DNA from: Callorhinchus milii
Lineage: Eukaryota
NCBI RefSeq assembly: GCF_018977255.1
Contig: NW_024704742.1
Location: 49,850,001-49,914,000 of the forward strand
Reading direction: 5' to 3'
Length of the DNA stretch: 64,000 nucleotides
In this document: piece after piece, positions 2,484-59,370 of the stretch
Numbering within the stretch: position 1 is the first letter of the stretch
Layout: each line of letters begins with the position of its first letter
Notes under the pieces: generated by a model
What the model was told of the DNA's origin: nothing
Database searches by the model: none
Seen by the model: only the letters and a program-made list of their open reading frames with translations
Program-made: the position numbers and the translations under genes

Positions 2484-4240
2484 TCACAGCTGCAGTTTCA
2501 GCAGTGTGAGGGGTGAGGTAGTGCCGTAGTCTGGCGATGTTCCGGAGGTGATGGAAGGTGGTGCCAGTTGTGGCGCGGATGTGGGGAAGTAAGGACAACT
2601 CAGGGTCGAACAGAACACCGAGGTTCCTGACTGGCTTTGAGAGGTGGAGAGTGCAGCCTTGGATGCTGATGGTGTCGGCGCCTGAGGTGCGGAGGTGCTG
2701 ACGTGAGCCAATCAGGAGGGCCTCAGTTTTGTGTACGTTGAGCTGGAGAACGTTATCTCTCGTCCAGGACTCGATGTCGGACAGGCAGCTGTCAGGACAT
2801 CGGTGGTCGTGGAGTTGAGGGTAGAGGAGGAAAGGTAGCGTTGGGTGTCATCCGCATACATGTGGAAGTTAACCTCACCAAGGGGGAGCATATAGAGGGT
2901 GAAGAGGAGGGGACCGAGGACAGAGCCCTGAGGGACACCGCACGACACAGTGCGGGGGGTGGAGGAAAAGCCGTTTGTGGAAACAAAATGAAGACGGTAG
3001 GAGAGGTACGACCTAAAACACTCAAGGACAGGGCCTTGAAGGTTTAGGTGGGAGGACAAGTGGTGGAGGAGGATAGCATGGTCGACCATATCGAATGCTG
3101 CCGATAGGACGAGGAGGCAGAGGGAGCCCTGGTCGCAGATGGTCAAGATGTTATTGGTGACCTGGACCAGGGCGCTTTCTGTGCTATGGGCAGCACGGAA
3201 ACCCGATTGAAGGGGTTCGAATAACGCATGGATGGAGAGGAAAGAGCGCAGCTGGGAGGCGACAACTCTTTCAAGGACCTTGGACAGGAAGGGGAGGTTG
3301 GAGATGGGCCGGTAGCTTGATAGCTGCGATGCATCAAGGGAGGGTTTTTTCAAAGTGGGAGTGATGATGGCAGTTTTTAGGGGAATGGGAACAGAGCCAG
3401 AGGAGAGGGACAGGTTGATGATGTCTGTGATATATGCGGCAAGGAGGTGGAGCTGAGAGATAAGGGGTGGAGTGGGGATGGGGTCAAGGGAGCAGGTGGT
3501 GGGTTTCAGGGACAGGATGAGTTTGCTGACAGAGGGTGGGGAAACGGGTACAAAGGTGTGCAGGGAAGGATGGGTAGGAGTCGGAGTGTGGGAGGCAAGC
3601 GGTNGGGGGGTGGATGTAAGTTGGAGGGGGAGTGACCGCAGAGCGAATTCCCTTGATTTTGGATTCAAGGAAATCCAGCATCTCCTCGCAGTGAAGGTTG
3701 GAGGAGATGACCTGCACGGGGTGGCAGGGGGGACGGAGGAGTCGGGATGTGGTAGAAAACAGTAGCCTGGGGTTGTTCTTCGCCTCCAGGATTATCCTGG
3801 AGTAGAAGGACGACTTGGCCGAGGCTAGAGTGGAGCGTTAGATTTTGAGGAGGTCCAGCCAGATTTGTCGGTGGACCGTTAGGCCAGATTTGAGGGAGGT
3901 GCATTCAGCGGCCCACACCTGGCTCTTCAATGAGCGGAGGTGGGTGGTGAACCAGGGGGAGGAGCGAGAGTAGGAGACAGTACGGGAGGTGGTGGGGGCA
4001 AGAGTGTCGAGTGTGGAGGAGAGGGTGTTGTGGAGGAGGGTGGGAGGAGAAGAGGGGTCAGTGAGGGTTGAAGGCCAGAGGGAGAGGAGTTTAGAGGACT
4101 CCAAGGCAGCGGTTAGGGATTGTGGGGTTAACTTCTTCCAGGGGCGGTAGAAGATGGTGGTGGGTCTGGTGGAGGTGGGGAGGGGGGTGGAGGTGGTGAA
4201 GGAGATGAAGTGGTGATCGGTGATGCAGTGCAGAGAGTGA
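2484..4240 (-). mobile_element. L2-clade LINE ORF2 fragment with reverse transcriptase domain (degenerate, 3' end missing)
   Basis: ORF 2712-3668 has YRPISNLPFLSKVLERVV, QSGFR..HSTESAL, SAAFDMVDH, GVPQGSVLGPLLFTLY and YADDTQ; upstream frame has LDTLAP...SPWFT; frameshifts present. Confidence 0.95.
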
Positions 4241-5582: not shown

Positions 5583-5717
5583 TTGCTATTGAATTTTGAG
5601 CTCTTACTTTTATAGGTAAAAATATGGGAACTGTTGTAGAAGGTTTAGTGCAGACTTTTAGAAATATTATGACTTGATAAGAAAGCACTTAAACCACATC
5701 ATCGTTCTTAACTACAG

Positions 5718-5836
5718 TGTATGTATGTATGTATGTATGGATGGATGGATGGATGGATGGATGCATGCATGCATGTATGTAAGGATGGATGGATGGATGG
5801 ATGGATGCATGCATGCATGCGTGTATGTATGTATGT
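5718..5836. repeat. compound tetranucleotide microsatellite (ATGT)n(ATGG)n(ATGC)n, two blocks
   Basis: Directly visible. Confidence 0.97.
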
Positions 5837-6360
5837 TAGGAAATATATACCTTCAGAATTCAACATTGTTGTTGCACAATGTTGTAATATACTTTCATTT
5901 TCCTTCCTCATGCTTGCTTCCATCAAATCCAACCTTAAGTGTTCCAAAATGAAACACTTTTCTGTTTGCTGTCAGTGAGAATCCTGTGTGAAATCTCAAT
6001 CAGTCCCTAGAGGCCGCAGATGTTCAGCAAGTGTTGTTCTGGAATTGGCACAAATTGGCTTTAAATTGGCAATGCAATTGACAAAAGGGTACTCCTCTGA
6101 GATTACATTACAAAACCAAAGATTCGAGGCAGGGCAAGGTGGGCTTTGCAGGAATCAGAACCAGAATTGTTATGCCTCATCTGTGAATGTTTGATGCTGA
6201 TATCAGGTGGCAAAAATAATAAATTGCATTTGTTATAATGCCTTATGAAATCATCGAAGAACGTCAAAAGAGTTTCACAGGATTTTCTGATAAGTGTAGT
6301 GACTGTGGATTTTATAAGCAAACACAGCATCCAACATATGCATTTCAATTTTTGTTTAAG

Positions 6361-33784: not shown

Positions 33785-34122
33785 TGGAGTCCTGCAACTC
33801 AGTGGTTAGAGCACTCGCCTCGCAAGCGAGACACCTGGGTTCAATTCCCAGCAAGGAGAAATGTTGGGTAAGTTTCCTTACTCCACACACCTGTTTATCT
33901 CTAAGTAGGAAACCGGTTGTCAGTCGATTTCCGGGGGTAATAATTCCTTCAAAAAATAATAATAATAAATTGGTCACTTCAATCCACGACTGTTTGTGGG
34001 ACACTGCTGTGCAATTGGCTGCCACGATTCACCCACAAAATATACAGTTAACTCACTTCACAGTATATTCTGTGAAGTGCTTTGAGACGTCTCGTTGATG
34101 TGATAAGATGCTATATCAAATA
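33785..34122 (+). mobile_element. full-length tRNA-SINE
   Basis: tggagtcctgcaactcagtggttagagcactcgcctcgcaagcgag...gggttcaattccc. Confidence 0.92.
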
Positions 34123-34174
34123 ATATTAGAGTATATATCAAATCATATATGTCAAGGATTATTATTATAATATA

Positions 34175-34678
34175 TACTCTTGATATCTACCCTGTTCCAT
34201 GCAGCAGCCCCTATTCCTATCCATTCTACCAACCCTTTCAGACAAAGTCTGGCAGAGGTGCAATAATTATCATCAACAGTACCAGGCGGCCATTTCTCAT
34301 CTAGATCTTTCCCTCTATTCCTTTTATGCCAATCAGTCACTATTTGGGTAAACATGTGCAGGTACAGTCACACAAACTCTTGGCAAACATTGCTTTGTTA
34401 AATGATATCAGTACCAGCACAAACTCATAGCACACATTATGCCTTTGAATTCTCAAAGAAACTGGAAAGTCCAATTTATGTAGGCTGGTGGGTCTGAATA
34501 TGTGCAGGTTAAAATCAACTAACCCCCGGGTTATACCTGCAAGGTAGTTGTTTACATCACTCGTTCCTTCAACTGAGGACGATATTGACCATTTGTTATG
34601 TGTGTCTCTCTCCTTTGGTTTCTGCCGAAGCCAGGAGTCCCCAGATGAGTATTACTACCCACCCCCATGGTGATATAC
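34175..34678 (-). pseudogene. env: degenerate env-like region downstream of the integrase
   Basis: Acceptor cttgtttcccAG, then a hydrophobic signal-like ISPWGWVVILIWGLLASAET; Cys-rich middle with stops; GLVEWIGIGAAAWNRVDI is fusion-peptide-like. Confidence 0.6.
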
Positions 34679-34705
34679 CTGGGAAACAAGCATAGCATTT
34701 GTTAA

Positions 34706-35050
34706 TTACCAGTTATATACTGATACGTTTCCCGTTTTTAACTGGTTGATATCGAGCCAATGTGTCACCCTTCTCCCCTTCTTTCCCATATACTGAATCA
34801 AATACACAACAAGACTAGTTTTGTTCACAATTGGAAAAGGACCATTCCACTTGAGAATGAAAACGTGAACCTTTTTCCCATAATCCATCACCATTATTAT
34901 ATCACCAACTTCATATTCAAATGGTCGGACTTTATTATCAAAATACTTTTTTTTTTAGATTTTCCCAAATTTTGTGCCACATAATGATTTGTGGGCAGTA
35001 CATGTTCAATTATTTTTATCAACCAGGCTCTTCCTACTGCTCCCTGTCGC
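34706..35050 (-). pseudogene. pol: retroviral/LTR-element integrase C-terminus (GPF motif), frameshifted
   Basis: ...HYVAQNLGKSKK / frameshift in A-run / KYFDNKVRPFEYEVGDIIMVMDYGKKVHVFILKWNGPFPIVNKTSLVVYLIQ...HWLDINQLK. Confidence 0.85.
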
Positions 35051-36274
35051 AAAGGCAGCACTGTTATTGCTAACGTTTTAACATTCTTAAACATGCTTCC
35101 AGTTGCAAATACATTTCACTTAGATCAGCTTTTAATGACTGGCTAGCTTATTATATAATAATAATACTTGCATTTGATAAAGAACCTCATCACGAGTTTG
35201 AGATATCTCAAATCGTTTCACCAGGTTTTACTGTGAAGTGTAGCAACTATCTTTTTTAGGCGAAATGATGTTTAACATTTGTTGTGAAATTACATTAAAA
35301 TTCAGACATAAATTCAGACAAGAGGAATGGTACAGCTTTAACTTGCAAAATTAAGAAAAAAAACTTCAAAGCCATGTTTCCCAGGTAGTTTTTTTTTTAA
35401 ATCCAGGTGGATCTATTAAAATAATGATCTCCTGGAAAAAAACCAAAGGACATTTGAAAACCTCAAGTCTTTAAATAATGGAACACAATTCCATCTTAGT
35501 CATGGGTCGAGTGATCATCCCTACCTTGGCCATACACAAAAAATGTCTCATTTTACATGAGCAGAATAGATGAGAACTGACTGAGTTACCGAGCCAGTAA
35601 TCATCCTTCAGAAAATATTTCCTTTCTTCTATCAGATTTCTGGCCCATGTATCTAAAGCACGTGCATCATTGTTACAAGCTTGCATTCAGACAGAAATTA
35701 GTCAGCCCCTGAATAAAATACGATTCGGTTTTAAAATCTTTGTACAGCGTCTACAAACGCATGTCAAATTTGTTCATTTTTGATGAGGTTTCTTGAAATA
35801 CAAAATAAACAACAGTGTGAAATAGATCACTAAAATAGAAACATTTCTCCTGATAACTCTTTAGAAGTAGAGAAGTACAAGAAGTGATTACAGCATCTGT
35901 GCACTTAGTTTCTGCAGTTAATTAATTTTATAATGGGTGTGATTCAGTTTACCCGATCCGCCATATGCTTAGAGATCACATACCTGGAGGGCAGACCATC
36001 CTGATGATTTTCCGCATTCCTCAGGGAACCAGAGAAAACAACTATTTTTTTCCCCCAGCGAAATAATTATTGTTAAAACATGACGACCAAATGCTGTAGC
36101 TATTTTTGTTTTTGCAAGTGTTCCATCTCCTTCTCTATGGAATGATGGGCGATGTTGCCTAAGTCCCCACACACTTTCCAATATCTCACCCAGTAGACCA
36201 TTATGTATGTGAGTGTCAGCCAGCAAATGCCATCACAGACAAGACTGATCCTGGTTCTCATTCGGCATCCGCAA

Positions 36275-36735
36275 TGGTCTGATACATGCGGAAACCAATC
36301 ACCATGCTTAAGAATATCCAAACCAGACTGAGAGTTCCACCTATGAATGCAGCCTATCATGAAAATGTCCGTATCTATGTCGGTGTAGATAATTATTTGG
36401 GAGGACTAGTTTGCAGGGCTATGGGGAGAGAGCGGGAGAGTGGGATTAAATTAAATAGCTCTTTTAAAAGCGCTGGCACAGACACGATGGGCCGAATGGC
36501 CTCCTTCTGTGCTGTATAATTCTATGATTCTATGAAATAGAATACACATTCTTTACTTGGAGGGGCACACGCTGCTTACATTATTCCAGAGACCATTATG
36601 CACTGGTTGGTAAGAGGCAAGATTTGGAGACCTTTGAGTGTGTGTTGGGATTCTGTTGGTGCTTAACCAGAAAGAAACATATAGCTTGCCTTTTCAAGCA
36701 TGGCATGGCAAGCTTCCCTCTGGTTGTCCAGATAG
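36275..36735 (+). repeat. family X repeat interrupted by a CR1 3' end
   Basis: ggaaaccaatcaccatgcttaagaatatccaaaccagactgagag, resuming after 36536 with cttggaggggcacac. Confidence 0.75.
36384..36535 (+). mobile_element. CR1 LINE 3' UTR with (ATTCTATG)n tail
   Basis: gggctatggggagagagcggg...gatgggccgaatggcctccttctgtgctgtataattctatgattctatga. Confidence 0.92.
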
Positions 36736-57734: not shown

Positions 57735-59370
57735 TCATACGGATGGGCAGCTGCCTCTGCCTAGCTGTCTACTACCCCCTCCCCATCTCCCCCTCTCACC
57801 CCGGCCCCTTCCCATACCTCCCTCCAGACTTTCGAACCTGTCTCCCACTCCTCTCTCATCACCACCATAACCCACAAGAAACCGACCACCAGCTCCCTCG
57901 ACCCCATCCCTACCCCTCTCCTTACCTCCCAGCTCCACCCCCTTGCCCCTCTACTCACAGACATCATAAACTTCTCCCTGTCCAATGGTACTGTTCAGAC
58001 CCCATTAAAAATCGCCTTGATCACTCCAATGCTTAAAAAACCTTCCCTGGACCCATCACTGCTCTCAAACTACTACCCCATCAACCTCCCTTTCCTCTCC
58101 AAGGTCCTGGAATGAGTTGTTGCTTCTCAGCTTCTCTCCTTCCTCTCCGGTCACTCCCTTCTCAAACCCCTCCAATCGGGTTTCTGTACCGCCCACAGCA
58201 CAGAAACAGCCCTGGTCAAAGTGACAAATGACATTCTGTCCATCTGCGACCAGGGCTCCCTCTGCCTCCTCGTCCTCCTTGAACTCTCTGCTGCCTTTGA
58301 CACTGTTGGCCACTTTATCCTCATCCACCGTCTCTCCTCTCACCTCAACCTTCACGGTTCTGCCCCTTTTGGTGACATCATCGCAGACATGGGGTCAACT
58401 TCCACATGTATGCGGATGACACCCAATTCCATCTCTCTGCCTCCACACTTGATTCTAGGACCACTGCTGTGCTGATAGAATGTTTGTCAGACATCAAGCC
58501 CTGGATGAGAGCTAACTTTCTTCAGTTGAACGTCAACAAGACTGAGATCCTCCTAATTGGTCCCATCAGCGCCTCCACATCTCAGGCACTGACAGCATCA
58601 TTATCTCCATCTTACTAAGCTAGTGCGGAACCTTGGCATCTTGTTTGACCCTCAACTATCCTTTCTACCCCACATCCTCGCCATGACCCGCTCTGCCTTC
58701 CCCCACCTCCACAACATCGCCCGGCTCTGCCACTGTCTCACATCGCAGGCCAACAAAACCCTCATTCACACATTCATAACATCCAGGCTTGACTATGCAA
58801 ACTCCCTGCTTGTTGGCCTCCCAACTCCTCCCTCCATAGGCTGCAGATCATCCAGAACTCTGCAACCTGTGTTATCTTCCGCACCAGGCTCCGTGACCCT
58901 ATAATAATAATAATCCTTGCATTTGATAAGCGCTTTTTCACATCTTCTCGCCATCTCAAAGCGCTTCACAGAATAGACTGTAAAGTGAATTGACCGTATA
59001 TTTGTGGGCGACCCCATCAACCCCATCCTTGTTGGACTCCACTGGCCTCCCATCACACAGAGGATACAGTTCAAGATTCTGGTCCTCACTTTCAATGCCC
59101 TCCATGGCCTTACTCCCCCCCACCTCTGCAACCTCCTAACCCCCTACCATCCTGCCCGCTCCCTCTGCTCAGTGTGCTCCGGTCTGCTTCACATCCCCTG
59201 CCTCGCCCACCCCACCATTGGCAGGCGGGCCTTCTGCCACTTTGCCCCCACCCTCTGGAACTCTATCCCGCAGTCCCTCCACCTTGCCCCCTCCCTTGCT
59301 TCCTTCAAGACCCATCTCAAGACCCTCCTTTTCAACTGTGCTTTTGATCACCCTGCTTTCCCCCCAGATT
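57735..59370 (+). mobile_element. L2 LINE ORF2 fragment with RT, internally deleted, carrying a nested SINE
   Basis: LELSAAFDTV, MYADDTQ, DIKPWMRANFLQLNVNKTE, SRLDYANSLLVGLP, RIQFKILVLTF. Confidence 0.95.
58903..59009 (-). mobile_element. 5'-truncated SINE inserted into L2
   Basis: SINE tail flanked by gaccctat (58895-58902) and gaccccat (59010-59017). Confidence 0.88.

Follow-up and report, generated by a model that had tools for sequence, protein, structure and literature searches.

A probable SnRV-like endogenous retrovirus relic with a pol-env junction in the elephant shark genome

SnRV and its described relatives

The snakehead retrovirus (SnRV), whose original description, including that of its spliced leader, reportedly goes back to Hart et al. 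in 1996, makes its envelope from a spliced mRNA. The SnRV sequence was retrieved with a published primer as a record of 10,688 nt (L003). In this sequence the leader ATG lies at position 180, the donor at 221 and the acceptor at 6182-6183, in agreement with what the preliminary description of the locus reported below had stated about SnRV env. The leader holds the Met and the hydrophobic core, the intron is in phase 2, and the spliced product of 14 + 1116 = 1130 residues is as long as BFVD entry Q88282, to which it is 100% identical. A length of 10,688 nt is also given for GenBank U26458.1 (SnRV) in PMC12193657.

The SnRV envelope contains neither an ISD nor a CX6CC motif. Between its upstream furin-like site and the fusion peptide lie 453 nt, or 151 residues, and a further ~350 residues separate the fusion peptide from the membrane anchor. 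Read from the primary sequence, this layout suggests that gamma-type Env is a less close parallel than the F-type fusogens. Of 7999 scored candidates in the protein collection, the only match to the envelope was its own entry; it had no relevant Pfam hit and was matched by no second viral contig. A single-sequence AlphaFold model of env-ORF residues 475-990 (L003 7553-9100) was poor (pLDDT 36), and the 100% self-hit was the only meaningful result of the fold search. By the protein, Pfam and viral-contig searches, the SnRV envelope is nearly an orphan.

For the elephant shark, SnRV-like endogenous retroviruses (ERVs) as well as numerous short fragments of ERVs have already been published, and Han 2015 places CmiERV scaffold 2 (lineage I) with SnRV, in a tree that shows no lokiretrovirus among its listed taxa (PMC4422223). 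By eye, CmiERV scaffold 2 looks mosaic, as its integrase resembles that of Loki and its env is of gamma type, and its tree predates the lokiretroviruses. The combination of a class III, SnRV-related pol with a gamma-type env is known and has been attributed to recombination (10.1101/2021.11.23.469661). In insect ERVs, env exons are spliced to short upstream exons that supply the start (PMC12992720). Since SnRV-like shark ERVs have been published and spliced env leaders are known, the basic finding presented here is an ordinary one.

The relic, its setting and its integrase end

The locus was analyzed within a stretch of 64,000 nucleotides of Callorhinchus milii DNA (the window). The pol-env relic, which the preliminary description had placed correctly, covers ~860 bp on the minus strand (35046-34188) and is sandwiched between two SINE pieces. 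Its upstream boundary is a SINE 3' piece (35148-35265, no strand assigned) recognized by repeat comparison within the window, while downstream a plus-strand SINE copy with a degenerate tail (33785-34188), 73-86% identical to its sister copies in the window (14-27% diverged), truncates env directly past the fusion peptide. The repeat tail at 34153-34188 is matched by other, unrelated contigs. Over 34122-34188 the tail is longer than in the sister copies and shows an apparent internal duplication. No LTR-like repeat was found in the 64-kb window or in the matching contigs, the locus contains no RT, tether or RNase H region, PBS, gag or accessory ORFs, and the window contains no further env. Comparison of the flanks beyond the SINEs with SnRV revealed no continuation of env or pol (scores 37 and 36, nulls 33-50).

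No second copy of the relic was present in the window, and at 80% likeness runs X1 and X4, whose contigs show presence and not absence, yielded only one 37-nt piece. In this piece a 114-nt X4 contig aligns with the integrase end over 37 nt (34873-34909) and shows 6 differences, which may reflect a distant second copy or chance. Of 24 listed runs, four (X1, X4, X9 and X10) were compared with the window. In run X1 a single contig contains the whole stretch and differs by one substitution, without indels, and in run X4 it is covered by two contigs with two substitutions and no indels; either run may be the source of this DNA. Because the X1 and X4 contigs cover the stretch without indels, the frame breaks of the relic are not assembly errors. 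Runs X9 and X10, which we guessed to be RNA, gave contigs without cover of the unique part and without joints, and are silent on expression and splicing.

The window is 28% self-repeated and contains copies that are presumably of the LINE and SINE classes. One repeat family (D4) is identical, by eye, at 34 of 40 positions to a repeat end within a published elephant-shark ERV, which tentatively suggests a cartilaginous-fish host. Low-copy repeat pieces at 36277-36731, with LINE-type RNase H/RT-like words in minus frames, represent a separate decayed element, and this region did not match SnRV pol. Two LINE-like fragments 54 kb apart form a long inverted pair (I4/I5; 3106-3507 and 57878-58276; 76-82% alike), and LINE 3' pieces of this kind are numerous in the window. 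A compound tetranucleotide microsatellite is located at 5702-5849 (D1). Of the 86 non-repeat ORFs of at least 72 codons elsewhere in the window, 83 were scanned together and had no Pfam hit, the other three having been covered by the Pfam scan that included the integrase end; an intronic position of the relic, between short host exons, is conceivable. What remains at the locus is dead: it has lost both ends beside SINE copies, has broken frames and is now without function.

On the pol side, the minus-strand frame 34954-34706 corresponds to an integrase C-terminal GPY/F (SH3-like) domain with GPF at 34843-34835 and the pol stop at 34708-34706, which bears out the earlier report of a GPF integrase C-terminus ending at 34706. 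The A-run 34955-34946 breaks the frame, but the homology continues upstream of it to ~35046. This segment (34954-35046, minus strand, separate frame) corresponds to the helix preceding the C-terminal domain; aligned without gaps, it shares 10/31 residues with CmiERV scaffold 2 and 7/31 with Loki-Bsp (by eye). Pfam returned Integrase_p58_C with E=4.2e-4, below the Pfam cut-off. In the ESM Atlas the best hits reached 0.95 and the nearest named family was SH3_Tf2-1 at 0.94 (13% of members), with a recognition value of 2227, slightly below the guide of 2300.

These Pfam and Atlas matches identify a retroelement integrase end and no more. As Integrase_p58_C and SH3_Tf2-1 are generic to Gypsy-type integrases, they would also suit an element in which a plain Gypsy integrase without env precedes non-coding DNA with chance peptides, as would the whole-env alignment to SnRV, which was not significant. 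However, such an element is highly improbable: the acceptor, the signal-like peptide and the post-furin match described below are correctly ordered and spaced, each of them being rare in the window, and no LTR-like repeat lies 3' of the integrase. The preliminary description had named best hits to env-less Gypsy elements with the 3' LTR at this position as evidence against its proposal; what follows the integrase here is a series of env-like features and no LTR-like repeat.

Aligned with SnRV pol, the integrase end scored 52, a value reached by 0/300 shuffles (mean 32.4, max 49). Identities to individual elements were counted by eye from sequences in paper supplements and the SnRV record L003. 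CmiERV scaffold 2 shared 43/101 residues with one 2-residue gap (33/70), Loki-Bsp 34/101 (27/70), Loki-Lch 27/70, and SnRV 16/70, lower than Loki; the epsilon-like CmiERV scaffold 324 shared ~10/70, and pattern-picked chance matches in prokaryote- or phage-like contigs reached 22-23/70. Among the elements compared, the integrase end is, on these residue counts, closest to the SnRV-clade CmiERV scaffold 2, with a modest lead over Loki. When the integrase and fusion pieces were used as queries in word-based protein searches, 9 and 4 candidates were returned, none of them significant. Four candidates from viral and metagenome scans were rejected as chance, two as pattern matches of 13-14 residues (L001, L002) and two lying within long prokaryote- or phage-like ORFs (L005, L006).

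Derivation from another class III lineage, e.g., the shark foamy-like ERVs, would be compatible with the frequent pol/env recombination in anamniote ERVs (10.1101/2021.11.23.469661) and with the statement, in the available text of PMC5512871, that no gene besides pol was detected in the shark foamy-like ERVs. We regard this derivation as very unlikely, as a PDB sequence search with the integrase end matched none of the solved retroviral integrases, not even those of foamy viruses, at E<10, and the best by-eye integrase match among the SnRV, CmiERV and Loki elements compared is an SnRV-clade ERV.

Acceptor, signal-peptide-like frame and fusion peptide

Directly past pol, a pyrimidine tract with CAG|G (34705-34679, minus strand) forms a candidate env splice acceptor, for which like tracts are found in CmiERV scaffold 2, directly past its pol stop, and in SnRV. 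Its AG at 34680-34679 lies 25 nt past the pol stop, exactly as had been estimated beforehand. When acceptors were scored by pyrimidine count, YAG|G and AG-free zone, 49 of the 8042 AGs in the window were equally good, corresponding to ~2% per 60 nt. The distance from the conserved integrase W to the acceptor is 80 nt here and 38 nt in SnRV.

Past the acceptor AG follow GT and then, in phase 1, ISPWGWVVILIWGLLASAET from 34676, whose first 18 codons (34676-34623, minus strand) resemble a signal peptide with a hydrophobic core and an AxA end. A hydrophobic core with AxA of this quality occurs at 1 site in 128 kb, with the threshold fixed at the observed value after the fact, and the 18 codons 3' of the acceptor have the length of a complete putative signal peptide. 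The frame stops at 34598-34596 and contains no in-frame ATG back to the preceding stop at 34715-34713. The phase-1 peptide with an in-frame stop was thus described correctly in the preliminary description, and so was the missing in-frame ATG, but not the absence of any ATG upstream, as ATGs are located at 34698, 34693 and 34668, each in a frame other than that of ISPWGWVVILIWGLLASAET.

We lean towards the reading that an env start of its own was present and was lost by decay, which explains the missing ATG equally well because the relatives carry a Met and the copy is single and broken. The other reading to be taken seriously, although it is not the one that we favor, is that an ATG was missing from the env exon from the outset and that a leader exon upstream of gag supplied the Met through a phase-1 join. 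This reading agrees with the lack of an in-frame ATG in the ISPWGWVVILIWGLLASAET frame and with the use of such a spliced leader by SnRV, the closest env relative, and the insect ERVs (PMC12992720) set a precedent for a leader that gives little beyond the Met. In SnRV, however, the hydrophobic core sits in the leader and the intron is in phase 2, whereas here the core lies past a phase-1 acceptor and the whole putative signal peptide is already present in the 18 codons behind it. Moreover, an own Met is found in 16/16 of the Loki env N-termini compared (supplement of PMC7947760) and at the corresponding place in the env of the shark ERV CmiERV scaffold 2, and the copy is decayed, with several frame breaks and a truncating SINE that is 14-27% diverged from its sisters. 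Because a full signal peptide follows the phase-1 acceptor and the relatives have their own Met, an env that was ATG-less by design does not reach even chances in our assessment. Any other source of the env start codon is most improbable. With a single damaged copy, loss by decay is only slightly the more probable of the two readings.

Downstream of the signal-peptide-like frame, a 103-codon open stretch in another frame (34651-34343, minus strand) probably represents part of the env surface region, although it had no Pfam hit and no significant match to SnRV env. It is followed by an env stretch (34367-34236, minus strand) in the same frame as the fusion peptide, leading up to a degenerate cleavage site at 34250-34236, where the RLCLK ahead of the fusion peptide is not a canonical R-x-[KR]-R. 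The second peptide of the preliminary description, GLVEWIGIGAAAWNRVDI, begins at 34235, 441 nt past the start of ISPWGWVVILIWGLLASAET, against the ~440 nt given there.

Its first 15 residues (34235-34191, minus strand) form a putative SnRV-type fusion peptide, identical at 8/15 positions to SnRV env-ORF 626-640, directly behind the last furin site. When the SnRV post-furin 15-mer, one of 14 R-x-x-R sites tried, was compared with the 127,906 15-mers that the window yields in six frames, GLVEWIGIGAAAWNR ranked first (score 32, next 20), and in the reverse test the SnRV post-furin site was the best among the SnRV env 15-mers for the relic peptide (32, next 17), so that the two are reciprocal best matches. 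The last residues of GLVEWIGIGAAAWNRVDI, VDI, touch the repeat tail 34153-34188. Since that tail is matched by other contigs, only the 15-mer is safely viral. For the whole env stretch, an unanchored, frameshift-aware alignment to SnRV env scored 34 (null mean 29, max 45, n=238), and tblastx gave nothing at E<0.01. The signal/fusion frame, with its stops written as X, had 0 hits when 1.84 billion representatives were scanned with HMMER, PDB sequence searches gave chance matches only, and the ESM Atlas returned for the fusion piece only leads below 0.9. The predicted env assignment rests on one 15-mer.

The signal frame could also be a product of chance, the true env frame at 34648 being an overlapping one that reads SSGDSW and matches behind the upstream furin site of SnRV. 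The motif is identical at 5/6 positions to SnRV env-ORF 480-485, is unique in the window and lies about as far from the fusion peptide as in SnRV. Yet it was picked post hoc from 1134 positions, its local score of 34-35 falls inside the null, two stops precede it in frame, and there is no DNA likeness, so that we give this frame only a slight chance and retain the signal-peptide-like frame as the probable beginning of env.

Origin from a lokiretrovirus fragment was considered as well, as the integrase end is identical to Loki-Bsp and Loki-Lch at 27/70 positions (by eye) and Loki env likewise opens with a signal peptide shortly after pol. We judge such an origin to be very unlikely. The GP-x-x-G motif found past the signal peptide in 15/16 of the Loki env compared is absent from all three frames of the relic. 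The Loki fusion peptides differ, with 3/15 identical residues in Loki-Bsp and 1/15 in Loki-Pma (by eye), and their distance from the start is ~100 residues versus ~147 here. In addition, lokiretroviruses are not reported from cartilaginous fish in the available text of PMC7947760.

Classification and comparison with known systems

Most likely, the relic is a single-copy, env-bearing, SnRV-like (class III-related) ERV and neither a plain Gypsy element nor a lokiretrovirus, a classification drawn from integrase and env features. We assign it to the SnRV-like ERVs because its integrase is nearest to an SnRV-clade ERV, the fusion 15-mer matches SnRV and the Loki env motifs are absent. Of the original proposal, an env-bearing SnRV-like or lokiretrovirus-like element other than plain Gypsy, the env, the exclusion of plain Gypsy and the SnRV likeness (integrase, fusion peptide and place of the acceptor) therefore stand, but the lokiretrovirus does not.

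In the parent virus, pol would have ended at 34706 and, as the layout and general retrovirus biology suggest, env would have been read from a singly spliced subgenomic RNA entering the acceptor 34680-34679. Env would then have begun with a signal peptide leading into the secretory path, followed by ~130 residues of surface subunit, and a furin-like protease would have cut ~147 codons on, exposing the SnRV-type fusion peptide. Later, both ends were lost next to the SINE copies and the frames were broken.

The distance from the acceptor to the fusion peptide is 443 nt here (~147-148 codons) versus 1822 nt (~607 codons) in SnRV. As these 443 nt are close to the 453 nt between the upstream furin site and the fusion peptide of SnRV, our results suggest that a compact env core is common to SnRV and the relic. 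More tentatively, the relic may belong to an undescribed SnRV-related lineage of cartilaginous fish with a compact SnRV-type env consisting of a signal peptide, ~130-150 residues, a cleavage site and a fusion peptide. The N-terminal part of ~460 residues in SnRV would then be a later addition, shark SnRV-clade viruses would have had env of two unrelated types, each placed behind an acceptor at the pol end that both share, and the leader exon would have given the start only. If true, the novelty would lie in the compact SnRV-type env, in which ~148 codons separate the acceptor from the fusion peptide, compared with ~607 in SnRV; the literature searched, largely without subscription papers, contains no description of such an env. 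A fossil that has the same fusion peptide but only a quarter of the surface length would show which core of the SnRV envelope is conserved and would make it easier to find natural relatives that are intact.

Under the leader reading, the relic would share with the insect errantiviruses (PMC12992720) an env exon whose start comes, by splicing, from a short exon upstream, but those elements have a Gypsy pol and a baculovirus-type F env. The lokiretroviruses (Wang and Han, PMC7947760), as presented in the available text and supplement, have a related integrase end (27/70) and likewise a short N-terminal env part running from signal peptide to cleavage site to fusion peptide. They differ in their own Met, the GP-x-x-G motif, another fusion peptide after RXKR and ~100 residues before cleavage. 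CmiERV lineage I (scaffold 2) of the elephant shark has the closest integrase end (43/101), with YGKK and NQLKT common to both, and a pyrimidine-CAG|G acceptor-like tract directly past the pol stop, whereas its env is of gamma type (ISD and CX6CC by eye), with its own ATG and another fusion peptide.

SnRV differs from the relic in that its integrase end is only 16/70 identical, its acceptor lies inside pol with an intron in phase 2 and the hydrophobic core in the leader, its acceptor is 1822 nt instead of 443 nt from the fusion peptide, and its surface subunit gives no significant match. Both, however, have a GPY/F integrase end, an env acceptor shortly past the same integrase motif, and a fusion peptide, identical at 8/15 positions, directly behind the cleavage site.
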